A program made the position numbers and the translations under genes. The notes beneath the pieces are model-generated. The model was not told the DNA's origin. It saw only the letters and a list, made by a program, of their open reading frames with translations, and ran no database searches. Positions 2,414-58,796 of a stretch of DNA of 64,000 nt are shown piece by piece. The stretch spans positions 33,675-97,674 of the forward strand of contig JBAZLV010000004.1 of the NCBI GenBank assembly GCA_041650055.1, written 5' to 3'. The stretch is from Nitrospirota bacterium. GTDB lineage: Bacteria; Nitrospirota; UBA9217. Numbering within the stretch: the first letter of the stretch is position 1; every line of letters begins with the position of its first letter.

Positions 2414-3127
2414 CTACGCCTTTCCTATTTTCTTCACAAATATTTCCCTGGTAATGCTCTTATCAACCGCGACCATGGTTTCTCCGAACTGGATCACGTA
2501 CGAGGGCCTTTTCTGATGCAGTTTCAGCACGCTGCCCGGAAGAATTCCCATTGCTGAAAGGCGGTCAAGCCGAGAATGGGACTCTGGAGTGATAAATACG
2601 ATTTTTGCCTGCTCCCCGGGCATAAGATCAGCCAGAGGAATGACCAATGGCCTTATTTCCTGCTTAAATAATGAACAGCATTTGCCACGAGGGATCGGCT
2701 TGCCATCCGGCGAGGTCGGCGGATGGCCCAGCAGTGTGCATACGCTGTCCGTCACCTCAGGGGAAAGAATATGTTCGAACTTGCAGGCTTCGGCTTCAGC
2801 CCGGTCAAGCGCAAAAAGATCGTGAAACAGCCGAAGCGAAAGCCGATGTCGCCGCACAAGCTCGCGGGCACGATCATCTCCTTTCGGAAGCAGCTCCAGC
2901 ATCTGGCCTTTGCTTTTTATCCATCCGTTTTTAGCCAGCTGCTTCAGAATGGATTCGCACCCCTTTATCGCGCAGTGTTCCAGTACTTGATCGAGCGTCA
3001 GAATTCCTTCTTCTCGAAGCGTCCAGATGATCTCAAGAAGTTCATCCTCTTTTTCGATCTCAGGCAAAACACATAAGGAAGGATGACCAGCTTTTCCTTC
3101 AGGAATATCAGTTTTTTGATCTTTCAT
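2414..3127 (-). CDS. DtxR/MntR-family metal-dependent repressor fused to a C-terminal FeoA domain.
   Basis: N-terminal HTH and 'ELVRRHRLSLRLF' dimerisation helix typical of DtxR. C-terminal SH3-like FeoA signature 'GEQAKIVFI...LSAMGILPGSVLKL'. GAGGTG RBS. Confidence 0.7.
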   Translation of the reverse strand: MKDQKTDIPEGKAGHPSLCVLPEIEKEDELLEIIWTLREEGILTLDQVLEHCAIKGCESILKQLAKNGWIKSKGQMLELLPKGDDRARELVRRHRLSLRLFHDLFALDRAEAEACKFEHILSPEVTDSVCTLLGHPPTSPDGKPIPRGKCCSLFKQEIRPLVIPLADLMPGEQAKIVFITPESHSRLDRLSAMGILPGSVLKLHQKRPSYVIQFGETMVAVDKSITREIFVKKIGKA

Positions 3128-3161
3128 GGGTCACCTCATTTCATTCTTTACGACTCCATGC

Positions 3162-5141
3162 CTACAAAACAATATTGAATGTCTTAAATACTAAGTGTAC
3201 CAAAGCCCCAATACCGAATGCAAACGGGAAAATAAATGCTACCATGTACAGCGCAATCTTGAGCCCACGCTCTTTCACCATCATGAAAAAATTCGCAATA
3301 CAGGGAACAAACAAAGTCATAACGATAAGCCCGATCACAATCTGATTTGGATTCAGCATTCCCTCCTTTGCAAGCACGAAGAGGCCCGCTGCGCCATAGT
3401 CTCTCCGTAAAAAGCCGATCACAAATGCTTCCGCTGCTTTGCTGGGAAGTCCGAGAAGCCCCACAACCAGTGGATCAGTTATTTTTTGAAGATAGTCAAG
3501 TGCTCCCAGTGTATGTCCCAGAAAAAGAATAAGCGTCCCTAGGATAAAGAGCGGAACCGCTTCCTTTAAATACCATTCAACCCTGGCAAGCGTCTTGACA
3601 AGGATATTGGATATATGCGGAATTCGCAAAGGCGGAAGCTCGAGAATAAAATCAGAGGGTTCTCCGGAGATAACCTTCGATGCAAGATAACCCGTCAGAA
3701 GCATCACCATAACAATTGTCAAAAGCCATATACCGGTGGCGACAGCTGATATACCGGATACAAGGCCAAGAATGACACCCAATTGCGCAGAGCACGGAAC
3801 TCCCAACGCAAGGAGGAGGGTCACCAAAATCCGTTCTTTTCTGGTTTCAAGAATCCGGGTTGTCAAGGTTGCCATGGTATCGCATCCAAGCCCGAGCACC
3901 ATCGGAAGAACCGCCTTTCCGTTCAGTCCCATGATCCCGAATATTCGGTTGACCATAACAGCGAGTCTCGGAAGATACCCTGAATCTTCAAGTAAACCGA
4001 ACGCGATAAAAAAGAACCCTACGATGGGAAGCACGATCGCAATTGAATAGGTCAAGGCCATCGTAACTAAACCGTATTCACCAACAAACAACTCACGTAA
4101 AAAAGGCCATGGAAATAAAAAATCCACGACCGTAGTACTCAACGGGTTCAAATAAGTTCCGAATACGGTTTTTTCCAGAAACGTTACCATGACCCCAGCG
4201 CCCAGTACTCCGACAAATTGATAGACAAGATACAACACCAGGAGAAGAATGGGAAAACCCAGGACCGGATGCATGCTCAGGGAATCGAGAAAGGAACCAA
4301 TGCTCGACTGACGGTCATCCCGTTCACGAATCATGACCTGGGCAAGAATCTGATCTGCCTTCTGAAGGCGCTTGCTCGTGATGATGTATCCAAGAGAATT
4401 ATGAAAGCGGGATTGCACCGACTGTCGTATGTGTTCGATCGTTTGAATGGAATGATGATCAACGCGAGCATGCAGCCATTCGTTCAAGCTCTGATCTCCT
4501 GAGAGAATCATCAGAGCAAGAGATCGGCGGGAAATCGGCGATTTTGGAAGAAGCGTGGCAATCTCCTCAATTCCTCGTTCAATGGGTTCTTCGTATGTTA
4601 CGCTGAGAGATGTAATGCGTGGTTTTTGGATTGCTGCGAGAAGCGAATCAATACCGTTTTTTCTAATGGCAACCGTCTTGACAACCGGAACGCCGAGCAG
4701 ATGCTCCAGTAATGCCTGATCAACGATGATACCCCTGCTTTTTGCCTCGTCATCCATGTTCAGATCAAGCAGAAAAGGAAGCCCCATTTCGGCCAGTTGC
4801 AGGGTGATGAGCAGCCCGCGCCGGAGATTCTTCGTATCGGCAACCTGGATAACCACATCGGGCCGCTCAGCGAGCAGTATATCCCGGGTGACCTCTTCAT
4901 CTTCAGACATCGGCACGAGCGTGTTCACTCCGGGCGTATCAACAACAACGCTCTTCACTTTATGTAACGTTGCATTCCCATACGTCACTTCAACCGTAGT
5001 TCCTGGATAATTGGAAACCGTGACATAGGTGCCGGTCAAAAGGCCGAACAGGGCGCTTTTGCCGACATTCGGATTTCCGATCAACAATACTTTACGGTAA
5101 CTGGATGAGGAATCAACGGTGCTAGAAGCGTTATGATGCAT
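3162..5141 (-). CDS. feoB: Ferrous iron transporter FeoB.
   Basis: 659 aa. N-terminal G-domain 'LLIGNPNVGKSALFGLLTG' (G1) and 'DTPG' (G3), followed by a polytopic membrane domain. Strong GAGGAGAAG RBS. Confidence 0.9.
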   Translation of the reverse strand: MHHNASSTVDSSSSYRKVLLIGNPNVGKSALFGLLTGTYVTVSNYPGTTVEVTYGNATLHKVKSVVVDTPGVNTLVPMSEDEEVTRDILLAERPDVVIQVADTKNLRRGLLITLQLAEMGLPFLLDLNMDDEAKSRGIIVDQALLEHLLGVPVVKTVAIRKNGIDSLLAAIQKPRITSLSVTYEEPIERGIEEIATLLPKSPISRRSLALMILSGDQSLNEWLHARVDHHSIQTIEHIRQSVQSRFHNSLGYIITSKRLQKADQILAQVMIRERDDRQSSIGSFLDSLSMHPVLGFPILLLVLYLVYQFVGVLGAGVMVTFLEKTVFGTYLNPLSTTVVDFLFPWPFLRELFVGEYGLVTMALTYSIAIVLPIVGFFFIAFGLLEDSGYLPRLAVMVNRIFGIMGLNGKAVLPMVLGLGCDTMATLTTRILETRKERILVTLLLALGVPCSAQLGVILGLVSGISAVATGIWLLTIVMVMLLTGYLASKVISGEPSDFILELPPLRIPHISNILVKTLARVEWYLKEAVPLFILGTLILFLGHTLGALDYLQKITDPLVVGLLGLPSKAAEAFVIGFLRRDYGAAGLFVLAKEGMLNPNQIVIGLIVMTLFVPCIANFFMMVKERGLKIALYMVAFIFPFAFGIGALVHLVFKTFNIVL

Positions 5142-5175
5142 TACTTCTCCTCATATCGAATGATCAATATAACTT

Positions 5176-5676
5176 TCATTTTTTTGGTAGATACATACCG
5201 TGCGTGTCTCTGGTTCTGAGTCTGTTTCTATTTTTTAGTCTATCTTTCTTCAGACAATCATTGCAGAGTCCATATAATTCCAGTTTATGACTAGCAACCT
5301 GGAAACCTCGTTTTTTAGCTACATCATGCTGGAGAGCTTCGATACGCTCGTTCTCAAATTCCATAATGGAGCCGCACCGCGTGCAGATAAGATGGTCGTG
5401 GTGTATATCCGATTCTTTATACTCGAATCGGGTAAAACCATCATGAAATCGCCGCTCTTCGGCAAGACCTGCTTCGGCAAGCAGCTTCAGGGTTCGATAT
5501 ATGGTCGCATAGCCGATACCGGGATCGGTTTTCCTGAGTTGCGCATACAGGTCCTCAGCACTCACATGTTTTTTTGCCTTGAGGAAAACCTCTAGGATTC
5601 GTTCCCGTTGGACCGTCAACCGGAGCCCTTGTCCTGCAAGAAATTGAGATAATTGTTTTTGCGGCTTGTTCTGCAT
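5176..5676 (-). CDS. fur: Fur-family transcriptional regulator.
   Basis: 'LRLTVQRERILEVF' winged helix and the 'HHDHLICTRCG...CNDC' metal-site motifs. The internal ATG (MQNKPQ) preceded by GGAAGGAG is a better start than the alternative-start ORF beginning at 5736. Confidence 0.8.
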   Translation of the reverse strand: MQNKPQKQLSQFLAGQGLRLTVQRERILEVFLKAKKHVSAEDLYAQLRKTDPGIGYATIYRTLKLLAEAGLAEERRFHDGFTRFEYKESDIHHDHLICTRCGSIMEFENERIEALQHDVAKKRGFQVASHKLELYGLCNDCLKKDRLKNRNRLRTRDTHGMYLPKK

Positions 5677-5743
5677 AGCTCCTTCTTGAGAATGATTTTC
5701 AATAAGATTTGTACCATCATCCCGCCTTTCTGTCAACAGAAAA

Positions 5744-5778
5744 CAAAAAGGCCCTCTTTAAATACAAGAGGGCCTTTT
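5744..5778. terminator. Rho-independent terminator (bidirectional hairpin).
   Basis: Perfect inverted repeat AAAAGGCCCTCTT-taaatac-AAGAGGGCCTTTT with A/T runs on both sides. Lies between the end of the lipoprotein operon and the fur start. Confidence 0.6.
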
Positions 5779-5804
5779 CAAGGATATACCAGAATAAGTT
5801 TCTT

Positions 5805-6575
5805 TTACAATTTCATCAGTGCATCCTGCTTCTGATTCCAGAGAAGCCACTCATCCGTTTCACTACTCGGATCAAATTTTTGCGGTTTTGAAGCAGTGCC
5901 GTCCGGTGTCACCGTGACCTGCTGCATGGCCATGACAATAACCGTCCATTCCTGCATGGCTACCTCATGATACGGCGGCGGAACCGCATGAGGCCCGGGT
6001 ACTTGTTTCGGTCTCGATAGTCCGGCCTGCGGTTGCGTTGCTTCCGGCTTCGGCGTCCCGGAAACAGATACCGAACCTTCATACACTCGGAACAGAGAAC
6101 TTGCATCCGGTTCAATAGTCACTCCGTACACCGTGCCCCGGACTCCGGCGACTGCATTCGAAGTCTCCACCGCGACTGCTGACTTCGGGGTCGTCAGTTT
6201 TTTTACCTGTGCCCAGAGTTTTCCCATGAAAAGGCTGATTTTGAAATGCTTGTCCTTTGTTCCTTTATCATAGGACAACTCCTGGATTCTGAATGAAGAA
6301 GCCTCGGCAAATCGCATGACTGTCCGGTCAGGGAAACGAATTGCAAGCCGTGCGCCTTTTTCCACGGTCACCGAATCGTGCCTGGCTAGTTTGTCGCCGA
6401 TCTTCAGTATCCGGCCTTCAGGATTGGCTGCGGAAACCGTCCGGACGGTGCCGGTAACCATGCTCACAACCGCATTTTTCGGCCCTTGCTCCGCGATGGA
6501 AACCAGTGGATAACCTGAAAGCAATCCAACCATGCAGAGGCTCAACACAATCTGTTTCATCATGTTTTTCTCCAC
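5805..6575 (-). CDS. Secreted FecR-domain-like protein.
   Basis: Signal peptide 'MMKQIVLSLCMVGLLSGYPLVSIA', then a beta-rich region resembling the FecR/anti-sigma periplasmic domain. Last gene of the minus-strand lipoprotein cluster. Confidence 0.35.
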   Translation of the reverse strand: MEKNMMKQIVLSLCMVGLLSGYPLVSIAEQGPKNAVVSMVTGTVRTVSAANPEGRILKIGDKLARHDSVTVEKGARLAIRFPDRTVMRFAEASSFRIQELSYDKGTKDKHFKISLFMGKLWAQVKKLTTPKSAVAVETSNAVAGVRGTVYGVTIEPDASSLFRVYEGSVSVSGTPKPEATQPQAGLSRPKQVPGPHAVPPPYHEVAMQEWTVIVMAMQQVTVTPDGTASKPQKFDPSSETDEWLLWNQKQDALMKL

Positions 6576-6576
6576 G

Positions 6577-7548
6577 TTACTGAATGCTTACTTTTACGAT
6601 GTCGCCAGTCTTAAAGCCCTGGCCTGATCGAGATTGAGCCACAGAGAGATCCATGTCCGCGCCAAGATCATTTTTAATCACCAGGGCCGTGCCGATCAAA
6701 TCTTCCATGGTTCCCAGTCTTTGCTTGGTCTCCGGATCGATGATCTCTTCACCTGCGCGGTACACATCGAGCTTGTCACCTACGTTCAACCCTGATTTCT
6801 GACCAGCATTAATGTACAAACTGGTGCCGGAAACTTTGGCGACCCGTCCGCTCCATTTCCGGGTCCCAAGTTGTTTCATCATGTTGACCATGCCTTTGGT
6901 AAGGGCATCCCGCAGCGCGCCGTCACGCAATGACGTGTCATAGCCTGCCTTGCTGCCGGCTCCCAGGAAGGTCGAGGTTTTTTTATCGTAGATCCCGGTT
7001 CCGGAATCAGCCAGTATCTGAACACCGGTTGATGTGTCGACAATGCGATAGTCGACAGTCACGGATGCAATCTGTTTTTTGCTCTTGCCGAGAATATAGT
7101 CGCTGCCCTCTTCTGTTTCGGCGTATGCTGTAACCGCTCCGGTGACAATCGCGTTCAACCCCATGACCTGTCCCATTCTGGCTGCGGTTTCAGGATTGAT
7201 CGCACCGGTCGCTCCCATCCGCTGCTGGGCAAGGATTGACTGCATATCCTGCTGCGGAACAACGATAAACCGGCCTGTTTTTTGAAGAATCGTACCCAGA
7301 ATATCGGCTGCTGCTTCACCAATACCCAGAACCCGGGAAGGCGTTCTATTTTGGAAATTCACAACTCCAACCCTGAGTTTCGGGCCTCTATATTCGGATA
7401 TGCTGCTGCTCGTAGGAAGCTGCTTCGTGGTATCCGTTAATGTAGGATCATCCTTGACTGCTCCTGACGTGGTCGGACTGCATCCGGTTGCAATCATGCC
7501 AAGGACTACAAAAATGCTTATGCCAAAAAAAACCATACTTTTTTTCAT
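6577..7548 (-). CDS. CsgG-family outer-membrane lipoprotein (curli-type secretion channel homologue).
   Basis: Lipobox 'LGMIATGCS'. Shows the CsgG core pattern 'LRVGVVNFQNRT...GRFIVVPQQDMQSILAQQ...NAIVTGAVTAY...VTVDYRIVDTSTGVQIL'. Start set at MKKSMVFF after a GGGAGGAA RBS. Confidence 0.65.
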   Translation of the reverse strand: MKKSMVFFGISIFVVLGMIATGCSPTTSGAVKDDPTLTDTTKQLPTSSSISEYRGPKLRVGVVNFQNRTPSRVLGIGEAAADILGTILQKTGRFIVVPQQDMQSILAQQRMGATGAINPETAARMGQVMGLNAIVTGAVTAYAETEEGSDYILGKSKKQIASVTVDYRIVDTSTGVQILADSGTGIYDKKTSTFLGAGSKAGYDTSLRDGALRDALTKGMVNMMKQLGTRKWSGRVAKVSGTSLYINAGQKSGLNVGDKLDVYRAGEEIIDPETKQRLGTMEDLIGTALVIKNDLGADMDLSVAQSRSGQGFKTGDIVKVSIQ

Positions 7549-7597
7549 TCGTTCCTCCCCTGTATAAAAAATCAAATCATGAATATGAAGAATAGAG

Positions 7598-8371
7598 CTA
7601 AAACGTCTTCAGCGGTGCATTGGGATTCACCGGTTTGCTGCTGCTTATGCCGAAAGACCCTGGTCCCCACGGTACGTTGCTCGATATCCGTTCGACCAGT
7701 TGTGTTGATTCGTAATCAAGATGAATCCCAATCGCTTTTGTGATCAGCTTCACACCTAAACTTATGGCAAATGATTTCGTGATATCTTCCGTACCTGTGG
7801 TGCCTTGATAAAGAGTTATCCACGGCACTTCGTTGTCTCGTGAATCAAATATTTTTGCCACCACCGCTGTAGCACCTCCTGCTTTTCCCTTCATATATAC
7901 TTCACTTTTGACGCCAAGTCCCTGTTGGAACAGAGTTACACCCGTTTGCGTATTCACCAGTTTGAATTTTGCACGAACCTTCCTTACATTATAGGCTCCA
8001 GTCGTTACTTCATCAAAATCCATTAACGTGCCGTACAATATCCCTTCAACATCGAGTGTCTTGCCCAGTTCCTGCGGTGTTGTCATATCCAGCTGGCCGC
8101 CTAATGTTATGCCCATCTGATCCCGAAGGATCTGATCCGTTGCTTTGATATCCATGACAACATACGATCGGCGCTCCAATGCTTTTACCATTTTCTTGCG
8201 GACGACATCCGGGCCTTCAACATCAGCGGTATCGTTCCGCATCGGAAGAACAGCAACCCGTTTAAGCGGGTTATTTACATCACAATAAAGAGGAACTTGA
8301 CGGGATACTGAACATGCCGTCAGCATAATCATCACGGATATCAATGCGTACGGGATTGTTCTTTTTCGCAT
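7598..8371 (-). CDS. DUF799-like lipoprotein (a CsgG-associated partner).
   Basis: Lipobox 'MLTACS' and a 'VAVLPMRNDTADVEG' pattern. Sits immediately upstream of the CsgG-like gene, as in the conserved CsgG-like/DUF799 neighbourhood. Confidence 0.45.
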   Translation of the reverse strand: MRKRTIPYALISVMIMLTACSVSRQVPLYCDVNNPLKRVAVLPMRNDTADVEGPDVVRKKMVKALERRSYVVMDIKATDQILRDQMGITLGGQLDMTTPQELGKTLDVEGILYGTLMDFDEVTTGAYNVRKVRAKFKLVNTQTGVTLFQQGLGVKSEVYMKGKAGGATAVVAKIFDSRDNEVPWITLYQGTTGTEDITKSFAISLGVKLITKAIGIHLDYESTQLVERISSNVPWGPGSFGISSSKPVNPNAPLKTF

Positions 8372-8390
8372 GGAGACTCGTACCTCAAAA

Positions 8391-9473
8391 TTAGTACACA
8401 ATAATCACTCTGCAATATTGAAGAAAATTATTCTGACTGTTCAAACGGCGAAGCATCTCAGCATCAGCGGCGCCTACCACAATGTCCGTTTTTCCTTTGC
8501 CGGATGCTCCCGTAGCCTTGATCACCGCCGGATTGTCCGTCACCCGGAAATTATGAGCAGCAGCCTGCACTTCTTTCGCATAACCGGCAGCTCCCTGTTC
8601 AACAACATTCGTCCTGGTCACGATCTTGCCCACGTAAATTTCCTGTCCCTGAGGATCCAGGATTCGTGGCAAAAGAGCCGGTCGAAGTCCGGTGCCGCGC
8701 CCATCAATAACCACACCGGTAGCAACGCCACCTTTAAAATCAATGGTTGGTTCAGAAGCAGGCAGTGATGGTTGTACTGGTTCAACCTTCTTTTCAGGCT
8801 CAACGGATGGTATGGATGGCAATTCTTTCTTTTGAGAATCACTCACGGGTGGAGAAGGCTCTTCTTTTTTGCCGGGGCCAGCAGGAACCGGAGTTGCGGA
8901 TCCGGAATCAGGGCGTTTTTCAGGAACTGATGGTGTAATCCCTGGTTTTGAAGGTGGTACGGGTTCGGGCTGAGGTTGTATAATTGTGGGTTTCCGGGAC
9001 GGAATTGAAATACCGCCGAATGTCTGGGGCACAAGCGTATCCAGAAACGCTCCCTGAATGGGTATTGCAACCTGTACTTCAACCGATCCATCGGAAAAAT
9101 AATCGGTCTTCACCACTCGTGCTCCCTGTACAATGCCTTCCACTCTTGTCCGAATAACATCATTTTTAACCAGAACATTTTCGACCACGGTCTCTGAATC
9201 TATCCTGACGCCCTGGATAACCTCGAGAAGATTCCTGATCGCAACAAGAAATCCTGCCCGTTCGGTCATGGCCCGGGCTTGTGCCGGATTAACCGCGAGC
9301 CGTGAAGGAACACCGATGCCGGTTGCCATAATTTCGCCGGTCGTCCAGTTGATCCGGCCGGAATTCGTTGTTTCAATCGCATCTCCGGGAGTGGTTTGTT
9401 GTGCAAATGCAGAAAAACAGAATAAGAACGCCAGTACCACTGCATAAAAAGCGATTAACAATGATTTGTACAT
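8391..9473 (-). CDS. Secreted LPP20/FlgP-like protein, paralogue A, with a Pro/Ser/Glu-rich linker.
   Basis: Signal peptide 'MYKSLLIAFYAVVLAFLFCFSAFA' with GGAG 7 nt upstream. An N-terminal domain ('INWTTGEIMATGIGVP...AQARAMTERAGFLVAIRNLLE...SDGSVEVQVAI') and a C-terminal domain both align to the ORF at 12246-13097. The central linker of about 100 aa is PEPVPPSKP-rich. Confidence 0.4.
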   Translation of the reverse strand: MYKSLLIAFYAVVLAFLFCFSAFAQQTTPGDAIETTNSGRINWTTGEIMATGIGVPSRLAVNPAQARAMTERAGFLVAIRNLLEVIQGVRIDSETVVENVLVKNDVIRTRVEGIVQGARVVKTDYFSDGSVEVQVAIPIQGAFLDTLVPQTFGGISIPSRKPTIIQPQPEPVPPSKPGITPSVPEKRPDSGSATPVPAGPGKKEEPSPPVSDSQKKELPSIPSVEPEKKVEPVQPSLPASEPTIDFKGGVATGVVIDGRGTGLRPALLPRILDPQGQEIYVGKIVTRTNVVEQGAAGYAKEVQAAAHNFRVTDNPAVIKATGASGKGKTDIVVGAADAEMLRRLNSQNNFLQYCRVIIVY

Positions 9474-9547
9474 TGTCATCTCCTCATGAATGACCATCTG
9501 AGATTCGTCATGCTCATGAAAATGGGCATCCCGTAACAAGCAAAACT

Positions 9548-9570
9548 GGATTCCCGCTTTCGCGGGAAAG
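9548..9570. repeat. REP-like palindromic element (GGATTCCCGC-tttc-GCGGGAA).
   Basis: Perfect stem-loop in the spacer between convergent/adjacent genes. Same family as the palindromes at 62751-62825. Confidence 0.5.
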
Positions 9571-9600
9571 ACGACTTAGTGGGCTTCATTTAGCCCCTCA

Positions 9601-10983
9601 TCACTTCACAACAAAATCAAGACGCATTTCTTTTCCGGAATGTACATCTACCGTGCCAGAAGAAACTTCTCTGTCATTCCGAAGAACTGATACTTTGTAG
9701 GACCCCGGCGCAAGACCTTCGATCCTGTAGGAACCCTTGTCAATCGAGATACCGTAGCTTACCGTGCCTTCCCGGTAGAATACATCTCCATCATCAACCG
9801 GTTTGCCCGATGCATCGCGAACGTTTCCGAAAATGACCCCGCCCGGATTGAGCGCTGTATCAAATCGGTAAGTCCGGCCTTTTTCGATCTGAATTTCTCG
9901 TGATGATTTTGAGAACCCTTTGCCTTTCAGTTCAATACGGTGTTTCCCTGAATCGGAGACGGCAACCGAATACGTTCCATTTGCAAAAGAGTTGGGAGTT
10001 CCTTTGCCGTCTTTCCATACGACAACGGTTCCCTCGGGTACAAAATTCCCCGAAGTGTCTGTTACCTTTCCAGTAACAATAGCCGCGTATTGCCGGTCAT
10101 CCATTCTCCGGCCAAGCCGTTTTATCTTTGGGACCGGGAGAATGTCTGCCATTCGCGTTTTATCTTTATTCTCTACAATGGTATAAAACGTCGCCTTGTC
10201 GACATCAAGATAACCGCCGGAATAATATCCAGGCATGGTTTCTCCGTCCACTCGCAGAATGATATGAAAAGGATCGACAAAATTATGTGAATGCTCGGCA
10301 TCGGAAAACGTCCAGCCCAAATCAGGATAATATACTTCAAGATACGCATGAAATCCGCCATCATTTACCTTCACTCCCCAATACTCTTTCGAAAAACCCC
10401 ACTCATATCCCGGAGGCAGATATCCGTGTGCAACGCGCGCGGGAATTCCTGCTGCACGGATGAGCGCCACCGCAAGATTTGAATATCCCACACAATATGC
10501 TTTTTTATACTTGAGAGCTGAAACAGCATCTGCAGGAACCGTCAGGCTTGCATCAAAGGTCAGGGTATCGGCAATCCAGGAGAGGATGGAATTCACTGCT
10601 TCATGTGCATATCCGCTGCCTCGTGTAATCTCGGATGCCAGCCGGACAATTGACGGATGCTGTGACTGTCGGTCTTTTTCCGGAGCAAGGTACTGTGCAA
10701 GAGAAGAAGAAATCGATGCAGATTGAATCGGAAATTGAACCCGTGTTTTCAAAGGTGACATGCGGGAAGTTACGGTTACCCGCTTGCTGAATTCATCGAG
10801 GATAACGACTTTCTGTTCAAACGATTCATTCGAGTAATTCGGAATAAATGCGACCCCGCGAGGATTTACAATGTCATAGACAACCGTGTGCTCTCCTTCA
10901 AGCACAATCAACCCGGCCTCTGTAGCAGGGACAAGGAGAAGGATCAATAAAACGGTGAGCAATGATATGCGTAGAGGGTTCAT
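9601..10983 (-). CDS. Secreted transglutaminase-like cysteine protease-fold protein with C-terminal beta-sandwich (CarboxypepD_reg-like) repeats.
   Basis: Signal peptide 'LLTVLLILLLVPATEA'. Transglutaminase core 'KKAYCVGYSNLAVALIRAAGIPARVAHGY' (Cys nucleophile) with downstream His/Asp. C-terminal 'GTVVVWKDGKGT...SGKHRIELKG' repeats. Confidence 0.7.
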   Translation of the reverse strand: MNPLRISLLTVLLILLLVPATEAGLIVLEGEHTVVYDIVNPRGVAFIPNYSNESFEQKVVILDEFSKRVTVTSRMSPLKTRVQFPIQSASISSSLAQYLAPEKDRQSQHPSIVRLASEITRGSGYAHEAVNSILSWIADTLTFDASLTVPADAVSALKYKKAYCVGYSNLAVALIRAAGIPARVAHGYLPPGYEWGFSKEYWGVKVNDGGFHAYLEVYYPDLGWTFSDAEHSHNFVDPFHIILRVDGETMPGYYSGGYLDVDKATFYTIVENKDKTRMADILPVPKIKRLGRRMDDRQYAAIVTGKVTDTSGNFVPEGTVVVWKDGKGTPNSFANGTYSVAVSDSGKHRIELKGKGFSKSSREIQIEKGRTYRFDTALNPGGVIFGNVRDASGKPVDDGDVFYREGTVSYGISIDKGSYRIEGLAPGSYKVSVLRNDREVSSGTVDVHSGKEMRLDFVVK

Positions 10984-11032
10984 AAGAAGAAACCGCCGCT
11001 CCCCGAAAACAGGAGCGGCAATATCCAGATCA

Positions 11033-12187
11033 TTAGAATTTCAGTTGATCTTTGAATGCACGGATCGCGAGCAGCGCATCAGCGCCTGAGACGAAATCCA
11101 TTCCATGAAATTCACCGGTCGCTTTGTCAGCCTCCAGGAATCCGCGGGATGTGGTGACCATGATCGCATTGAATGCATAATGATCATTCCGGACTTCAGG
11201 GAACGGAGAAGTGGCTCCGAGAAACTTGGTGGCAAGCTTTTCATCACCCGTTACTTTGATCAGAAGGTCCTCAAGCATAAGCGCAAACTCAGTCTTGGTG
11301 ATGAGTTTATCCGGTTCAAATAAATGGTTGGGACCTGCTTCAAGTCCGCGAATCCTGAGATGCAGGACCGATTCGATGCTCGGCCTGAGCCAGTTGTCTG
11401 AAATGTCTGTTGCAGCCGGCATAGAAACGGTTTTATCCGGTGAAAACCGGTTGGTTGATTCCGTCGGCGGTTTAAATGCTGTATCGTAGACTTTGATCCC
11501 CCGCTTGGTAAACAGTTTTTCCAGATTCATTTCCTGATCAAACAAGGCTGCAACATCAGCGCGATCTATCTTCTGGATCAAGGCAATCTTTTTCCCGATC
11601 TCTGTGCCTGGCGCGGCTCGCTGAATTTTTTGAATCGTTGCCCATTCCGCATTTGCCTGTCCGGTAAATTCCTTGTTTATTTCCAGCACCTTCTTAAACA
11701 TACCCGCTGCCTTGTCAAAATCAAGAGCGGTCATATCAGCCATACCCATATAATAATGGAGCGGAGCGCTGTTCGGCTCTTTTTCGATTGCATTGGAAAA
11801 TTCGTTCTCAGCTTTTTTGAGCAGCGTGGCTGCTTTGGCTTGTTCCTTGCTCATCTGCATGGTAAACAGTCTGATCATTCCTATGCGGGATTCAATTCCC
11901 TGATCATACTGTTTCGCTTTGGACATTACTGCAAACGCCTGAGTAAAATCCGCTTCTTTGCCAAGAACCAGTCCTTTTCCGATATAACCAAGCGGCCCTG
12001 CAGGCGCAAGATCGATTGCACGGTTAAATTCACGATGCGCTTCAGCGAGCTGGTCTTTTTCCAGATATTTCAAACCCTGAGCATAATGGTATTCAGGAGT
12101 ATCCATAACTGAGGTAGAAGGAGCGGCCTTCTGACTGCATCCATAAGCTGCAAGCACAACCACTGCCAAAACTGCTATCAATCGTTT
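11033..12187 (-). CDS. TPR-repeat lipoprotein with a C-terminal SLH-like module.
   Basis: Lipobox 'LAAYGCS'. Multiple TPR-like helices ('YHYAQGLKYLEKDQLAEAHREFNRAIDL', 'HYYMGMADMTALDFDKAAGMFKKVLE'). The C-terminus ('DISDNWLRPSIESVLHLRIRGLE', '...VSGADALLAIRAFKD') resembles S-layer-homology repeats. Confidence 0.5.
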   Translation of the reverse strand, partial: KRLIAVLAVVVLAAYGCSQKAAPSTSVMDTPEYHYAQGLKYLEKDQLAEAHREFNRAIDLAPAGPLGYIGKGLVLGKEADFTQAFAVMSKAKQYDQGIESRIGMIRLFTMQMSKEQAKAATLLKKAENEFSNAIEKEPNSAPLHYYMGMADMTALDFDKAAGMFKKVLEINKEFTGQANAEWATIQKIQRAAPGTEIGKKIALIQKIDRADVAALFDQEMNLEKLFTKRGIKVYDTAFKPPTESTNRFSPDKTVSMPAATDISDNWLRPSIESVLHLRIRGLEAGPNHLFEPDKLITKTEFALMLEDLLIKVTGDEKLATKFLGATSPFPEVRNDHYAFNAIMVTTSRGFLEADKATGEFHGMDFVSGADALLAIRAFKDQLKF

Positions 12188-12245
12188 CATGGGTATCATC
12201 ATAAACCTCCGGGACCGTATAAGAATCTTCCTAAGAGTCTAAAAA

Positions 12246-13097
12246 CTAATCAACCAGAACAATCACTCTGCACTTTTCAAGCATGCTCATATTTTCAGAC
12301 GCACTTTGCAGCAAAGCAGCATCCGCATTGCTGATCACCATATCCACCCGTGAGTTGCCGGACACTTTCAATGCCTTAACCATGAGCGGCCTGTCCGCTA
12401 CGCGGGAATTCGTTTTTGCAGCAGCCGGATCCTTCAAATAACCGACCATCCCTTCTCGAATGGCAAAATCGCGATTGATCCATGCAGATCCGTACACTTC
12501 CTTTCCATCCTCATTCAAAATTTTCGGAGACATGGCAGGCCGTATGCCAAGCCCGCGTGCATCGACGATGAGACCCGTATAGAGCTGCCCGGGAATGCTC
12601 GACGTCGGGCTGCTCATAATTCCCTGACCGGTGGTTTTCGGCATAAGTGTTTCAGCCAAGGCTCCGGTCAGTTTCATTCCGACCGTTACTTCAACTGAAC
12701 CATCAGACATGTACTTCTTGTCCATGACTGTGGCTCCCTGGATAATGCCATTCACCTCGGTTTTGATCACGTCGCTCGAAACCATAAAATTCTCAATCGT
12801 GGTCGTTGCATCAACTCGTACTCCTTTGATCGCTTCAAGCAGATTCCGGTACGCAACAACCTGGGCCGCCCGTTCAGCCATGCCTCGTGCCTGAGCAGAA
12901 CTTGTCGGCTGGGAAGGCGGAGCACCGATCCCGACCGCGGTTACCACATTCGTCGTCCAATCAATCTTGCCTGAGGAACCGCTTGATTCAACAACATCCT
13001 TGATAGTGCCTGCAAGCTGTGCTGAAGCATCTGATCCCGTAAAGCAGATACAAGCACATACAATAAAAGCAATAACCACAGTTTTCCATACATTCAT
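12246..13097 (-). CDS. Secreted LPP20/FlgP-like protein, paralogue B. First gene of the cluster.
   Basis: Signal peptide 'VVIAFIVCACICFTGSDASA'. Aligns to the 8391-9473 product over both domains ('IDWTTNVVTAVGIGAPP...AQARGMAERAAQVVAYRNLLEAIKGVRVD...SDGSVEVTVGM', 'GLIVDARGLGIRPAMSPKIL'). Shares the C-terminal motif 'EKCRVIVLV'. Confidence 0.4.
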   Translation of the reverse strand: MNVWKTVVIAFIVCACICFTGSDASAQLAGTIKDVVESSGSSGKIDWTTNVVTAVGIGAPPSQPTSSAQARGMAERAAQVVAYRNLLEAIKGVRVDATTTIENFMVSSDVIKTEVNGIIQGATVMDKKYMSDGSVEVTVGMKLTGALAETLMPKTTGQGIMSSPTSSIPGQLYTGLIVDARGLGIRPAMSPKILNEDGKEVYGSAWINRDFAIREGMVGYLKDPAAAKTNSRVADRPLMVKALKVSGNSRVDMVISNADAALLQSASENMSMLEKCRVIVLVD

Positions 13098-13294
13098 TGC
13101 AATACCTCCTGATAGAGAAACTCGATCCGATTTGTTGATGTCATATGTTTTATTTAAAAAACTTTAATTTTCAAAGATATATGGCACAGATAATAGTAAG
13201 ATCGGAATAGAAGAATGGATTAACATGTGCAATAAACTATACCGAAGTCGATAAAAAATGTCAATGTAAGTAATGACAAAAATGAAGCAAAAAC

Positions 13295-14032
13295 TTAGAA
13301 TGCCCGTGCCAGGGTGCATGCAATCACCTGAGATGCTCCGGCTTTTTTCAACACGCGGCTGCATTCATTCATGGTAGCTCCGCTCGTAAACACATCATCG
13401 ATCAGGACCACGTTCTTTTCTGCTATGCGTCCAGGATAACGAAGATCAAACGCTCCTGCAACATTTTTGACCCGTTCTTCACCGCTCAGTTCAATCTGTG
13501 CTCGCGTCGGTCGTATCCTGAGAAGATTGTCATAGGAAAACGGGATCTCAAATGCCTTGTGTATTTCATAGACAAGAAGCAGTGATTGATTAAATCCTCT
13601 CTTCTTCAAGCGCATGACATACAGCGGAACAGGAATCAGAACATCGACGTTTGCGAGGAGGCGAATATGTTGTGCCATCCATTTGCCAAGCGGTTTTCCA
13701 AGCGCCCTGCATGGCCTGTATTTATATTGGTGAATTGCTTCACGAAGCGAACCCTCGAAATAACCAACTGCAAATGCCTGATCAAAATGAGGCGGGTGCA
13801 ATCTGCATACTCCGCAAATATGCTCTGGACTGTGACGTAACGTCTCTTCCGATTCAAACAGCCTTCCGCATCGCGCGCATGCCGGCCCTTCGATAAATGA
13901 AAAATCATTCCAACAGGAAGAACACAGGTAGGGAGTAGAAAAATCGTCAACGAGTGAATTACAGTGCGAACAGCGCGTGGGAAAAATGCTATTCAAGATA
14001 GAGTTGGAAAAAAGGATTATTCTGCTCATCAT
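13295..14032 (-). CDS. comF: ComF-family protein (phosphoribosyltransferase-like competence protein).
   Basis: N-terminal double zinc-finger 'CSHCNSL...CSSCW...CARCG...CGVC' plus a C-terminal PRTase motif 'VVLIDDVFTSGATM'. Confidence 0.7.
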   Translation of the reverse strand: MMSRIILFSNSILNSIFPTRCSHCNSLVDDFSTPYLCSSCWNDFSFIEGPACARCGRLFESEETLRHSPEHICGVCRLHPPHFDQAFAVGYFEGSLREAIHQYKYRPCRALGKPLGKWMAQHIRLLANVDVLIPVPLYVMRLKKRGFNQSLLLVYEIHKAFEIPFSYDNLLRIRPTRAQIELSGEERVKNVAGAFDLRYPGRIAEKNVVLIDDVFTSGATMNECSRVLKKAGASQVIACTLARAF

Positions 14033-14117
14033 AACAGGCTATTTCTCAATATGAAATAGACCGGCGAGCCGTATGCAAGCTCACCGGTCTCTGTAGTTGT
14101 TCACGTTTGCTTATTGC

Positions 14118-15185
14118 TTACTTTTTTCTCGGTCCGGCCAAAGGAGCTGCAAGGTCACGTTTTTGCTCTTTATTCAAAAGCTTCAACGTTTGCGGCCACT
14201 TTTCATCCAGGATCACTTCTTCTCCTGCTGGAATAAAATCTATATGAGAGGATAGTAAATGCCCGGAATTGCGATCTCGTTCATGTGCTTTTTGATTAAC
14301 CATCTTCTTTTCCGAATAGCTGACAAGACAAGCTGACTGCACGACCGACTGTCGGTTATGCTTGCGAGCGCCTGCATCAAAGAGTCCGCATTCAAATCGC
14401 TTTACGATAACGTTCGGGGAATCAAGCGGCACCGTAGTCAGTTTTTTTGCCCTGCTCTTAATCCCTTCGAGTGGCAATACCTTCTGAATCTTGCTGACTT
14501 GTTTATACTTCGGCCAGTCAAAATCAAATCCGAATGGTGTTCCCTCGTTATCAAACATGATGGCAATTTTGGAACCTGGACCAACAATGGATACATTATT
14601 TATCGTACGGGTAAACACAACGGTGTTTGCATACACTTTTTCTTCAGGCTTTGAAATTCCTTCTTTCGCTTCTGCAACGCCACCAATGGCATACTCAGTA
14701 AACGAAGGGACCAAATCCTCACCTTTATCTAACTGAATATATCGTGACAAATTCGCTTTGACAAATTGTCTTCCCAAAGTTTCAAGCCTCTCCTGGGAAA
14801 GACGTGATGATACCGGAAGACCGTTCTCCTTCTTGTTTTCCAAATACCCGTAATTACGGTAGCGAACACCACTCCCATCATTGCTTACATCGAGGAACCA
14901 GCCAGCGCCGACAATGGACACATGATTTCTTCTGGTTTTTCTCTCGATTTTTCCTGCTGTAGTAATCGGCGTCTTCGCCTTCTTGAATTGATCCAGGAGC
15001 GCCTTTGATACGGCTTCTTTCCCGGGACCAGGAACCCGTTCCAAAAGAGTCACTTCTTTTTGTCCGATCCCTTCTTTGTTCGATCGTTTTTCCAAATCAA
15101 TCCGCTGTTGAAAATCCGCAGCATTGGCAAATGAACAAAACAGAAGCGTCACCAGAAGCGCCGCTAATTTTTTTAACCTATTCAT
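14118..15185 (-). CDS. Secreted hypothetical protein.
   Basis: Signal peptide 'LAALLVTLLFCSFANA'. No recognisable motif. Strong ORF with GGAGGAAG RBS. Confidence 0.4.
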   Translation of the reverse strand: MNRLKKLAALLVTLLFCSFANAADFQQRIDLEKRSNKEGIGQKEVTLLERVPGPGKEAVSKALLDQFKKAKTPITTAGKIERKTRRNHVSIVGAGWFLDVSNDGSGVRYRNYGYLENKKENGLPVSSRLSQERLETLGRQFVKANLSRYIQLDKGEDLVPSFTEYAIGGVAEAKEGISKPEEKVYANTVVFTRTINNVSIVGPGSKIAIMFDNEGTPFGFDFDWPKYKQVSKIQKVLPLEGIKSRAKKLTTVPLDSPNVIVKRFECGLFDAGARKHNRQSVVQSACLVSYSEKKMVNQKAHERDRNSGHLLSSHIDFIPAGEEVILDEKWPQTLKLLNKEQKRDLAAPLAGPRKK

Positions 15186-15237
15186 ACTTCCTCCTATCCA
15201 AATATCAAGATCAATACCATGAAACGCATATCATGAC

Positions 15238-16041
15238 TTACAGATTATTCCAATACCAATAGCAGTAATAGCTAATACTTCCATCTCTAAGACGAGGATA
15301 GGACGGATAATTCTGCCACTTCATGGTATCCCGTCTGTTCCCACAATCAGCTGCACTTGATCCGGTGGCCATCACGGTAGCATCCTGTGACGTGGCCCAG
15401 TCAGAAACTCCATCTTTCCATGACCACTTGATACTATTCTTTTTCTGAAGATTGTCCGCGAAATCTTCACCAACTTCGTCAGTGGTAATGCCATCATACA
15501 GTTTGTCATGACTTCCTACCGCAATACGCAATCCGCCACGAAAAATCGATCCCATCCGTGTCCACATTTTTCCATCATTGAATTTCAGGGTCTCGCAGGA
15601 ATAAGTCGCCAAAATACTTAATCCATACGAATCATCTCCAAGACGCATTTGTGAAGAATTCGCGAGCATGTTTTGATCCCACATTGCCCAGACCGAAATA
15701 TCGCCCCATGCACCACCATGGGTACTTGCATAAAAGAGGTTCACATTATCAAGCGTTCCCGAGTCTCCTCCCTCTTCCCACCACCACTCGGCGCCATGCA
15801 GATTATAATAAAAAACCTTGGTATCCGTATCATCAAGTTCATTATTAAACCAACCGCATCGATTCCACGTATAATCAAGCGTTGTCTGCCAGCCGTTCTG
15901 ATACTCTTTCTGACAACCGGTTCCGAAACGTGCCTTTGCCCAGGCAGTATTAAAATCGGCAGCAACCATATAAAATGCAGCAATAATGATTAGTGTTAAT
16001 AGCTTTACAAACTTTTTACTTTTCATAGAAATCCTCCTCAA
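15238..16041 (-). CDS. Secreted Trp-rich hypothetical protein (speculative His/Cys dyad).
   Basis: Signal peptide 'LLTLIIIAAFYMVAADFNTAWA'. 'FYASTHGG' and 'ATYSCETL' about 40 aa apart, reminiscent of clan-CD His/Cys peptidase spacing; this is unverified. GGAGGA RBS. Confidence 0.4.
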   Translation of the reverse strand: MRRISMKSKKFVKLLTLIIIAAFYMVAADFNTAWAKARFGTGCQKEYQNGWQTTLDYTWNRCGWFNNELDDTDTKVFYYNLHGAEWWWEEGGDSGTLDNVNLFYASTHGGAWGDISVWAMWDQNMLANSSQMRLGDDSYGLSILATYSCETLKFNDGKMWTRMGSIFRGGLRIAVGSHDKLYDGITTDEVGEDFADNLQKKNSIKWSWKDGVSDWATSQDATVMATGSSAADCGNRRDTMKWQNYPSYPRLRDGSISYYCYWYWNNL

Positions 16042-16591
16042 TAAGATAAAATCACTGCTTAATATTGTTTCGGTAAATTGCCTCCTTTCTGGGAAATAGC
16101 AGATATCTGCATTAACCCTCCCTTCTCTCTTTGCCTATGCTAAAGCTCTATTTCGTATTTGGGGTGGTTTACAATGAGAAGTGAATAGTAGTTGCGTTTA
16201 GCAAGAATTAGCCTAAGCCGATCGATCAAGACGTAAAATACTCTCCAGTCATTCATTAATGTCACAAGTTGATAAATTTGTTTACTGAAGGATTAAAGCA
16301 ATAATTTATAACTATTACCGAAAAGAGCTGCACTGTCAATCACCATACATGGGTATTTTATGGGTATATAGAAAGTTGCATTGATTGTTTTTTCAAATAC
16401 TTGGTTGTTGTAGATATGAAAAAATGCGCACTTATAAATATAGGGGACTATAGGATGTCACGTCTTTTTCAGGATACAAACAGATGTCTGATAAGGATGC
16501 CTGATGGGAACTAACAATGCGTTAGAGTATTTTAGAGTATTCAAGTGTCAGAGGGATAGATGCAGAATATCCATTCTGAGTTCACAGTTCA

Positions 16592-16647
16592 GCGTCACCG
16601 AAATTTCTTTCTTTTGCAATATTTCTGTAACAGTCATACGATATAAA
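16592..16647 (+). promoter_or_regulatory. Tandem Pho boxes plus -10 region (psiE promoter).
   Basis: Four 7-mers at exact 11-bp spacing: GCGTCAC-cgaa-ATTTCTT-tctt-TTGCAAT-attt-CTGTAAC. TATAAA about 10 bp downstream. Near-identical copy upstream of pstS. Confidence 0.5.
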
Positions 16648-16694
16648 GATTCTGACAACAATAATAAGAAACGTTCCTGATAGAAAGGAATTCA

Positions 16695-17129
16695 GTGTAT
16701 TACTTTAATAAAATCGCAGACAGCTTAATCAAGCTCATGATTCCCCTGGTTGTCCTCGCCCTTATGATGGGAATTGCGCGGCTCGTTCTCGACTTGCGCA
16801 CGGTGTTCGGAAGCCAGACCATCGCGATAGCCTTTGATATGATGGTGACGAACATCCTTTCGATGTTTATTGTGATTGAACTGCTGCGGAGTGTCATGGA
16901 ATACTTTGCCGTGCATCGTCTGAAGATAACATTTATCATTGATGCCGCGCTGGTCTTTGTGCTCCGTGAAGTGATGGTAGAGCTCTATCGGCATTCGTTG
17001 CAAACAACCTCGATTTTAGCTCTTTCGGCTTTAATCCTCGTAATGGGCTGCCTCCGAACGCTTGCAGTCGTATTTTCACCTGAAAATTATCTGGAAAAGG
17101 AAGAAAAACAATATGGCGGACAGCGTTGA
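16695..17129 (+). CDS. psiE: Phosphate-starvation-inducible membrane protein, PsiE family.
   Basis: 144 aa, four hydrophobic segments, PsiE-like 'VIELLRSVMEYF...ITFIIDAALVFVLREVM'. Preceded by Pho boxes. Confidence 0.55.
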   Translation: MYYFNKIADSLIKLMIPLVVLALMMGIARLVLDLRTVFGSQTIAIAFDMMVTNILSMFIVIELLRSVMEYFAVHRLKITFIIDAALVFVLREVMVELYRHSLQTTSILALSALILVMGCLRTLAVVFSPENYLEKEEKQYGGQR

Positions 17130-28724: not shown

Positions 28725-28823
28725 AGATGGGGAATTCTCTCCTCGGTTACTATCATATAGCCGCTTCGCGTTTGTGTCAATAGAAGTGTAGAATGAAAAG
28801 AATAAGATCGGAAAGTAAAGACT

Positions 28824-28863
28824 CAATAAAAATGCCGTCACATTTTAATAACGTGACGGCATT
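28824..28863 (-). terminator. Rho-independent terminator downstream of secF.
   Basis: ATGCCGTCAC-loop-GTGACGGCAT. On the minus strand it is followed by TTTTTATTG. Confidence 0.5.
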
Positions 28864-58443: not shown

Positions 58444-58796
58444 AACATGTTCTCCATTATTAAAACTAAAATCCAGGCGATGGCAAGGGGACATCCTATA
58501 GTCCCTCTGTCTCAACAACACACTCTCCAACAAAAACATATTACTCTCAGGGCTAACTGGCTCAGCTGCTTTAATTAAATTGTTTTATCGGATCTGGATA
58601 TATAGATAGATATTTGAAAATTATCGTAGGCAAAAGGAAGACTATCGTTTGTTGCGTTTTTATTATACGAATATGAGATGTGATGTCAAGGAGTTAAACA
58701 GGATACAGGATTCTAGAAACCGGATGCCAGATTCCGGATACCGGATGATGGATACAAAGCAAAACGTCTGATCATGAAACGTGATTCAAGAACACA

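Follow-up and report, generated by a model that had tools for sequence, protein, structure and literature searches.

A seven-gene envelope cluster in Nitrospirota with a FlgP/Tp0624-type and TPR-SLH lipoprotein core: a possible wall-tethered periplasmic scaffold

The DNA described here (the window) is a 64,000-nucleotide stretch from a Nitrospirota bacterium of the UBA9217 lineage (GenBank assembly GCA_041650055.1, contig JBAZLV010000004.1, positions 33,675 to 97,674 of the forward strand). Between positions 5805 and 13097 it carries seven minus-strand genes, numbered g1 to g7 in transcription order, and this cluster is real, conserved, and uncharacterized. Of most interest is its core: a FlgP/Tp0624-type protein and a TPR-SLH lipoprotein that are widespread together and accompanied by accessories of flagellar-ring type. 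No published description of the cluster, of the g1 family, or of non-flagellar FlgP/FlgT-like systems was found in a literature survey whose coverage is incomplete. The rest of the window is of a housekeeping nature (Pst, SecDF, Tgt, ArgRS, HflX, Hfq, Era, RecO, and NadA).

The first gene, g1 (12246-13097, 283 residues), encodes a secreted protein in which a FlgP/LPP20-type SHS2 domain is followed by a Tp0624 D2-type domain. It is followed by g2 (11033-12202, 389 residues), a predicted outer-membrane TPR-SLH lipoprotein with its lipid-bearing cysteine at position 22, then by g3 (9601-10983, 460 residues), a predicted secreted cysteine enzyme of the transglutaminase fold, and by g4 (8391-9473, 360 residues), a secreted paralogue of g1. 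The open reading frame of g4 reaches 9539, and the signal peptide starts at MYKSLL. Further down lie g5 (7598-8371, 257 residues), a GNA1162-like (DUF799) predicted outer-membrane lipoprotein with Cys20, and g6 (6577-7548, 323 residues), a lipoprotein (Cys23) in which a CsgG/PelC/FlgT_M-type domain precedes a C-terminal beta domain of FlgT_C/TsaP type. The last gene, g7 (5805-6575, 256 residues), encodes a secreted FecR-domain protein resembling LipL45. From g1 to g7, the spacers measure 43, 49, 127, 19, 49, and 1 nucleotides.

Seven co-directional genes for exported proteins had been proposed in an initial annotation made from the letters alone, and each product does begin with a signal sequence. 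Three are lipoproteins (g2, g5, and g6) and four have ordinary signal peptides, with ends of signal-peptidase-I type: ASA/Q in g1, TEA/G in g3, AFA/Q in g4, and SIA/E in g7, the slash marking the cut. The lipoboxes of g5 (LTAC) and g6 (ATGC) are canonical. That of g2 reads AYGC, and its Cys22 is invariant in 18 orthologues whose own boxes are canonical. All three lipoproteins have serine at position +2. Since the genome encodes Lnt and a heptosyltransferase, both found in the window, the organism is a diderm with lipopolysaccharide. The family names first given to the products fared well in searches with hidden Markov models (HMMs): CsgG, GNA1162/DUF799, Transglut_core, TPR, and FecR pass the Pfam threshold, while LPP20 and SLH are sub-threshold in the window and clear in orthologues.

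Upstream of g1, the best promoter candidate of the region is a sigma-70-like site on the minus strand (13236..13264, TTGACA-17-TATAGT) with 11 of 12 consensus matches, and an AGGAGG ribosome-binding site precedes the g1 start codon (ATG) at 13097. At the other end, an intrinsic terminator lies 3' of g7 on the minus strand (5744..5780). It has a stem of 14-15 base pairs and a folding energy of -23.1 kcal/mol (z = -5.54 against shuffles), and a U-run follows, which bears out the strong terminator said to end the cluster. A second hairpin had been overlooked. It fills the 49-nucleotide spacer between g2 and g3 (10992..11022, minus), folds at -23.8 kcal/mol (z = -4.15), equals the g7 terminator in strength, and continues into a U-rich tail, UUUCUUCUU. 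In close Nitrospirota loci, too, a GC-rich hairpin and a U-run follow g2, with stem and loop sequences that differ among loci. By its sequence, the hairpin is probably a terminator or attenuator dividing g1-g2 from g3-g7. Because a terminator hairpin follows g2 here and a similar hairpin does so in close relatives, the cluster is not the simple seven-gene operon first described, and its layout is better understood as two units, g1-g2 and g3-g7, linked by read-through or attenuation. An Rfam scan of positions 5000-14500 gave sub-threshold matches only, all on the hairpin after g7, and thus no riboswitch or leader.

Conserved but modular gene neighborhoods

Related loci were sought with an alignment of 10 g1-family sequences, and the window proteins were then mapped onto the 80 best genome loci; overall, 87 related loci were assembled, and the open reading frames of the distant ones were clustered. 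The family itself is large, with 3147 relatives in a database clustered at 90% identity and 696 clusters at 50% identity below E = 1e-30; with a single peptide pattern, relatives turn up in no fewer than 402 genomes at species level. The g1 product is identical to a hypothetical protein recorded for a Nitrospirota metagenome-assembled genome. About 20 Nitrospirota genomes, counted by species, repeat the order g1-g7, so the conserved neighborhood on which the initial annotation had staked its case is present. Sequence conservation is high for g1 (63-75% identity in relatives) and g6 (67-73%), on par with FeoB (67-79%), while g7 is the fastest-evolving member (39-52%).

Gene content was counted only at loci with at least 7 kb downstream of g1, which leaves 35 close Nitrospirota loci and 20 distant ones. 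The distant set includes Nitrospira-like genomes, Desulfonauticus, Desulfatibia, Deferribacteres, Calditrichota, WOR-3, and Fibrobacterales, with Desulfobacterota among the groups represented. A g2 gene stands near g1 at 32 of the 35 close loci and at 19 of the 20 distant ones. A second g1-type paralogue is found at 28/35 and 9/20, the distant figure being a tblastn count with the window proteins and an undercount. The counts for g6 are 24/35 and 9/20, those for g7 27/35 and 10/20, and those for g5 21/35 and 4/20; g3 is specific to this Nitrospirota lineage (28/35 and 1/20). The constant core across phyla is therefore g1 plus g2, and the transglutaminase and DUF799 genes are lineage-specific extras. 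A CsgG-DUF799 pair as the founding module, which had been the starting point of the initial annotation, does not fit these counts, with both genes also absent from some close relatives.

Partial clusters are found as well. In two loci g1-g2 is followed directly by Fur-FeoB (L003, L047), in others g1-g4 and g7 occur without g5 and g6 (for example L024, L029, L033, L035, and L053), and in two more g1-g2-g5-g6 lack g3 and g4 (L045, L046). Partners of FlgP/FlgT_N, CsgG, GNA1162, and FecR type recur in shuffled orders. In distant phyla, g1 and g2 are usually followed by a gene for a protein of 380-430 residues and, after it, by a CsgG-like and/or a FecR-like gene, as in Calditrichota, WOR-3, and Deferribacteres. 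The third gene of this row was considered as a g4 orthologue and rejected, since the domain HMMs find only an N-terminal SHS2-type domain and no D2. It is instead a FlgT_N protein: Pfam FlgT_N exceeds its 28.8-bit cut-off in three of six cases (34.6, 33.1, and 30.3 bits), and a weak CsgG-like/DUF6175 region follows. Among Desulfobacterota, one locus has a TPR-CsgG fusion, a 707-residue GNA1162-like protein, g1, g2, and FecR in one row (L084), another has a GNA1162-beta-helix fusion beside g1 (L083), and a third relative has a SpoIID-TPR protein, g1, g2, and FecR.

Some neighborhoods have features of their own. In the Smithellaceae/Syntrophaceae-type loci L083 and L086, mutL and miaA lie between g1 and the TPR-SLH gene, among genes for IleRS, LspA, and ValRS. 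The TPR-SLH gene is not called in L088, and these three loci have a core-genome setting unlike that in Nitrospirota. Four Nitrospira-like loci (L048, L049, L051, and L061) have three or four tandem g1-type genes, some with a split or duplicated D2 match, and, upstream, one more gene that weakly resembles LPP20; the family has expanded locally there. Immediately downstream of the cluster in the window, the minus strand encodes Fur (5176-5676), FeoB (3162-5141), and a fusion of a DtxR-type repressor with FeoA (2414-3127). Nearly all close Nitrospirota relatives have this block (2414-5676) after the cluster, including those in which only g1 or g1-g2 is left. PADLOC returned no matches for the unannotated neighbor genes.

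Domain architecture of the seven products

In a PDB search, residues 48-143 of g1 match Campylobacter jejuni FlgP (9hmf_C) with E = 1.5e-12, and the alignment is gapless, including the region of the FlgP hairpin insert. Vibrio FlgP entries match more weakly (E = 3.8e-5 to 8e-4). With Pfam LPP20, g1 scores 21.8 and g4 14.1 bits, short of the 25.9-bit cut-off, and LPP20 is recorded for most g1 homologues. Identity between the two proteins is 47% over the N-terminal and 38% over the C-terminal domain, and both domain HMMs match the g4 orthologues, so the pair of FlgP/LPP20-like paralogues recognized at the outset is confirmed. In g4 the domains are split by a linker of about 85 residues rich in Pro, Ser, Lys, and Glu (23 Pro in 85 residues). 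Neither protein has a lipobox, and in 30 diverse family members the signal-peptide ends are of signal-peptidase-I type.

In Campylobacter and Vibrio motors, FlgP polymerizes laterally into large rings under the outer membrane. According to PMC12222027, ring formation in the FlgP family accompanies an insert that separates the SHS2 helix from the second strand. At the corresponding position, between helix 67-89 and strand 123-129, g1 has a segment of 33 residues (90-122), whose conservation (0.53) lies within that of the folded core (0.50-0.60) and above that of the linker (0.32). Thus the FlgP of the Campylobacter/Helicobacter basal disk is the best match of the g1 N-terminal domain, right through the ring-building beta-hairpin segment. 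However, this FlgP is a one-domain lipoprotein of 171 residues, whereas g1 and g4 are predicted to be soluble periplasmic proteins with two domains (283 and 360 residues).

The C-terminal domain of g1 is homologous to domain D2 of Treponema pallidum Tp0624 (5jir). [quoted passage not shown] The g1 chain ends with D2 and has no OmpA match in the Pfam scan, so it lacks the OmpA-like D3 and, judged from its sequence, is a D1-D2-type tandem minus the OmpA part. The D1-D2 tandem is thus paired twice with a wall-binding type of domain, in Tp0624 by fusion and here as the neighbor of an SLH candidate on a separate lipoprotein. The locus thereby gives the D2 domain a conserved genomic partner, and hence a testable hypothesis. 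Long members of the g1 family in Pfam contain LPP20 repeats only, apart from one fusion with Hint and another with trypsin, and give no hint of a function. The mature forms of g1 and g4 have one cysteine apiece (Cys276 and Cys354), within a nearly invariant KCRV motif and with a conserved C-terminal Asp a few residues away. This cysteine could form a disulfide between molecules or serve for attachment; in Tp0624, D2 likewise ends at a Cys.

In g2, TPR repeats occupy the N-terminal half (TPR_2, 9e-10), and a degenerate triple SLH-like region occupies the C-terminal half (IDRADVA 212-218, ITKTEFA 301-307, and VSGADAL 371-377). The window protein reaches E = 0.004 against the SLH domain of Sap (3pyw). 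Pfam SLH is found in 16 of 18 orthologues from six phyla (best E = 4e-25), and all of them have a lipobox. The TPR/SLH lipoprotein named in the initial annotation is thus upheld, its SLH part through the orthologues. TPR domains are common in lipoproteins that pilot or hold ring assemblies. Like the SLH tethers OmpM and Slp, g2 pairs an outer-membrane anchor with a predicted wall-binding SLH domain, and like Pal it is a lipoprotein. It differs from OmpM/Slp in that its anchor is a lipid tail rather than a beta-barrel, a TPR part is added, and the motif of the window copy is degenerate. It differs also in distribution, which spans Nitrospirota, Desulfobacterota, Calditrichota, Fibrobacterota, Deferribacterota, and WOR-3. 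We take the phyla other than Nitrospirota to belong to the Gracilicutes. A preprint states that SLH and CsaB are practically absent from Gracilicutes, the clade that contains Nitrospirota (listed there as Nitrospirae). If g2 works as its domains suggest, it would be a new type of outer-membrane-to-wall tether, made of a lipoprotein, TPR, and SLH.

The assignment of g6 to the CsgG-like family is sound: Pfam CsgG covers residues 66-245 with E = 3.3e-22 (79.3 bits against a 20.8-bit cut-off), and the lipid-bearing Cys is invariant in 28 homologues. The last 85 residues match FlgT_C at 26.2 bits (cut-off 27) and TsaP repeats. In PDB sequence searches, neither the single sequence nor the g6 profile reached a CsgG chain. 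An hhalign comparison with Escherichia coli CsgG (MG1655) aligns the lipobox, the long N-terminal linker, and the core (probability 66%, E = 5.6e-5). At this probability of only 66%, it leaves gaps of 6 and 2 residues (8 residues) opposite GQFKPYPASNFST, the CsgG constriction loop. The loop residues Y51, N55, and F56 of the mature protein lie in YPASNF, precursor residues 66-71 as checked on the sequence, and this stretch is deleted in g6. The first hairpin segment has 18 residues in g6, 7 of them charged, against 26 with 5 charged in E. coli. The second has 28 against 36, in a low-confidence model and without an hhalign alignment of the segment. The E. coli hairpin ranges are those reportedly given by Goyal et al. 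(2014). In the same low-confidence model, fold similarity to the non-pore proteins Vibrio FlgT and PelC is almost as high as to CsgG. Among the seven products and their flanks, there is no CsgE/CsgF/A/B-like, curli-type, or repeat-rich substrate gene. The missing PDB match, the loop gap, the short and charged hairpins, and the absence of substrate and CsgE/F genes mean that g6 is not a demonstrated channel, and the pore of a secretion machine that had been assigned to it is not borne out. We treat g6, from its sequence, as a putative protein of the wide CsgG/PelC/FlgT_M fold class to which a FlgT_C-type domain has been added. It is not of the Vibrio FlgT type, as the combination FlgT_N/FlgT_M/FlgT_C does not occur in its chain. 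A ring of TolB-N-fold lipoproteins plus a TPR protein at the outer membrane also recalls PelC-PelB in exopolysaccharide export. Unlike in that system, however, no glycosyltransferase is present in the seven genes or beside the cluster in annotated relatives, and g2 has no porin domain.

The DUF799-like lipoprotein call for g5 also stands, with a GNA1162-like/DUF799 match of 1.7e-8 (34.7 bits against a 25.9-bit cut-off), E = 1.1e-7 for its profile against the solved GNA1162 (4hrv), and a lipobox in the window copy and nearly all recovered orthologues. A CsgG-DUF799 module is indeed known: in Neisseria one gene separates GNA1162 (DUF799) from the CsgG-like gene, and here the pair is adjacent. 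A point of difference is that g5-g6 is dispensable, as relatives may keep the other cluster genes without it. The g5 proteins fall into two length classes, of about 257-270 residues in the window, L005, and L007, and of about 455-465 residues in most relatives (L001, L002, L004, and others); the C-terminal part of the long form has a faint DUF4412 match.

In g3, a Transglut_core domain (1.7e-21, 77 bits) is accompanied by two CarboxypepD_reg beta-sandwich domains. The catalytic triad is kept (Cys164, the His of FHAYLEVY, and the Asp of TFSDA), and all three residues are covered in the alignment to Pseudomonas aeruginosa TgpA (6g49). The transglutaminase-like enzyme first proposed is thus well founded. 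The FecR domain of g7 is equally real (residues 68-169, 1.4e-13, 51.5 bits against a 24-bit cut-off). Among named proteins, the Leptospira FecR-domain lipoproteins LipL45, Lsa33, and Lsa19 come closest, all sub-threshold, and a search of the PDB by sequence gave no match. What finds no support is the idea that g7 couples the cluster to an envelope signal: the protein starts with a cleavable signal peptide and has neither a cytoplasmic anti-sigma part nor a transmembrane helix, and no sigma-factor or receptor gene stands beside the cluster among the annotated neighbors.

A periplasmic scaffold and its alternatives

Our tentative reading, to which we give a little less than an even chance, is that the locus encodes a ring or scaffold of the periplasm, anchored by lipoprotein, tethered to the wall, and akin to the H-ring and basal disk of flagella. 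In such a structure, g1 and g4 would polymerize through their FlgP-type domain without a lipid anchor of their own. The anchor would be supplied by g2, with its lipid tail in the outer membrane, its TPR half holding g1/g4, and its SLH half binding the wall. In this lineage, g5 and g6, which belong to a ring-forming TolB-N fold class, may add concentric or adaptor layers; g3 might trim or cross-link a component, and g7 might be a structural part or an adaptor. The terminator behind g2 would set the stoichiometry, leaving the accessory proteins less abundant than g1 and g2. Families, domain layouts, export signals, terminators, and a conserved yet modular synteny are established; ring oligomerization, the contact between g2 and g1/g4, wall binding, and the part played by g3 are what we infer. 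In favor of this arrangement are the FlgP match of g1 with its conserved insert segment, the twofold pairing of D1-D2 with a wall-binding type of domain, the near-constant adjacency of g1 and g2, the SLH matches and lipoboxes of the g2 orthologues, the FlgT_N protein of distant phyla, the serine at +2 of all three lipoproteins in a diderm, the conservation of g1 and g6 at the level of FeoB, and a neighborhood of housekeeping genes in which no flagellar protein was matched.

Several observations weigh against the scaffold. The SLH region of the window g2 is degenerate (Pfam E = 0.39, with TRAE changed to TKTE), and the 64-kb window contains no CsaB gene or pyruvyl-transferase domain. The putative hairpin of g1 is modeled as coil in the AlphaFold monomer, with a predicted local distance difference test score (pLDDT) of about 40, and the models of g1 and g6 are weak as a whole (pLDDT 64 and 55.5). 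The matches of g5 to FlgO and FlgT_M reach only E = 0.06-0.08 (FlgO E = 0.06), and a profile search of the PDB with g5 reached GNA1162, not FlgO; a "FlgO-like" label for g5 is thus a weak lead from sequence. Finally, the modules separate in relatives, as g1-g2 alone, as g1-g4 with g7, or as g1-g2-g5-g6, and they may not form one complex.

This last point opens the way to the strongest alternative, in which no single machine exists and the region strings together two or three envelope modules that are independent but tend to be neighbors: the g1-g2 pair as a wall tether, a Neisseria-type pair of DUF799/CsgG-like lipoproteins, and a transglutaminase with a g1 paralogue. The modular gene content suits this explanation, as do the strong terminator after g2, with a similar hairpin and U-run in close relatives, and the Smithellaceae-type genomes in which mutL and miaA split g1 from g2. 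Yet CsgG-, GNA1162-, and FecR-like genes re-associate with g1-g2 in different orders and fusions in several phyla. Such repeated, independent co-localization argues for a functional link, and we consider fully separate modules unlikely.

The likeness to the Vibrio H-ring (FlgT, FlgP, and FlgO) raises the question of a flagellar role. In both cases there are outer-membrane-associated periplasmic proteins of ring type. The FlgP-type SHS2 domain is found in g1, FlgT_N in the gene that follows g2 in distant phyla, and FlgT_M-type (TolB-N/CsgG-like) and FlgT_C-type domains in g6. The H-ring, too, is anchored at the outer membrane by lipoproteins. There are differences as well. Here the FlgP-like proteins g1 and g4 lack a lipid anchor and have Tp0624-D2 as an additional domain, the FlgT parts are spread over different genes, the resemblance of g5 to FlgO is non-significant, and no flagellar genes are near. 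The TPR-SLH lipoprotein, the FecR-domain protein, and the transglutaminase have no H-ring counterpart.

The cluster might nonetheless serve the flagellar motor, supplying counterparts of the H-ring or basal disk as accessory rings from a site remote from the remaining flagellar genes. Homology to FlgP, FlgT_N, and FlgT_C and fold similarity to FlgT favor this, and the Tp0624 authors had also considered a motor-stabilizing role. A tblastn search with 23 E. coli flagellar proteins (E <= 1e-3; window plus 87 loci, 1.47 Mb) found no flagellar gene in the 64-kb window or within +/-10 kb at the 87 loci, which covers the gene neighborhood only; the genes flanking the cluster in annotated relatives are housekeeping ones. 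This argues against a flagellar operon, although a motor accessory could have its gene at another place in the genome. The Campylobacter flgP gene lies apart from the core flagellar genes, so that distance is no bar to a flagellar role. Together with the neighborhood result, other evidence makes a motor accessory quite unlikely. The only promoter-like site upstream of g1 is of the sigma-70 type, and the FlgP structures matched (104-171 residues) are too short to include a D2. Nor are the TPR-SLH lipoprotein, the FecR protein, and the transglutaminase mentioned as motor components in the consulted passages of flagellar-motor papers.

The model of the initial annotation was built around secretion, with g6 as a CsgG-type channel, a DUF799 partner, a surface structure cross-linked by the transglutaminase, FlgP-like periplasmic rings, and FecR signal coupling. 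The Pfam CsgG match with a lipobox, the placement of linker and core on E. coli CsgG, the Neisseria DUF799-x-CsgG module, and the intact triad of g3 speak for it. Compared with the type VIII secretion channel, though, g6 lacks the constriction loop, has shorter and more charged hairpins and an additional FlgT_C/TsaP-type domain, finds no CsgG in the PDB by sequence, and resembles the non-pore PelC and FlgT almost as closely. No CsgE/F/A/B-like or repeat-rich substrate gene accompanies it, and g7 has no anti-sigma module. Moreover, g5 and g6 are missing where g1-g4 and g7 are kept, and g3 is missing from nearly all distant loci, so that we find this model improbable. Highly improbable are LpoB-like or Tol-Pal-like regulators of peptidoglycan synthesis or remodeling, with g3 as a peptidoglycan peptidase: a SpoIID-domain protein lies just upstream of g1 in one relative, and g2 unites a wall-binding domain and TPR as Pal and CpoB provide them in Tol-Pal, but the supporting matches are all sub-threshold and reflect a common fold class, no penicillin-binding protein, Tol, or Pal gene is found in the cluster or its conserved flanks, and the FlgP-type domain and its conserved insert would have no role.

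To return to the wall-tethered scaffold, a broader form of it would see in the cluster a non-flagellar, free-standing ring or disk under the outer membrane, tethered by an SLH lipoprotein, widespread in Nitrospirota, Desulfobacterota, and several further phyla, and a living relative of the module behind the flagellar outer rings (FlgP, FlgT, and perhaps FlgO). We hold this extension to be doubtful. If it were true, an SLH-based outer-membrane tether would exist in bacterial lineages from which such tethers were thought to be missing. It would also bear on the origin of the flagellar outer rings; in PMC12222027, the origins of the proteins forming the added motor structures are stated to be unclear.

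Other features of the window

A region upstream of the cluster (14118-16041, minus) was considered as part of the same system and dropped, since ComF and a terminator divide it from g1 and relatives carry other genes there. Lying upstream of ComF, it encodes a secreted protein of 355 residues, without a match in Pfam, NCBIfam, or PADLOC, and a DUF6345 protein. The G+C content falls to 0.385-0.395 around 15.5-17 kb (15500-17000), and this part of the window may be a small variable island. Farther along, positions 56056-58539 (minus) encode an 827-residue protein with a P-loop ATPase domain of the Sll1717 family (NCBIfam 7.9e-59, residues 342-773). It has an N-terminal extension of about 300 residues without a Pfam match, gives no PADLOC match, and may be an uncharacterized defense-type NTPase. 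Beside SecDF, another large TPR envelope protein, of 832 residues (26343-28841, minus), combines many TPR repeats with a C-terminal SLT lytic transglycosylase domain.

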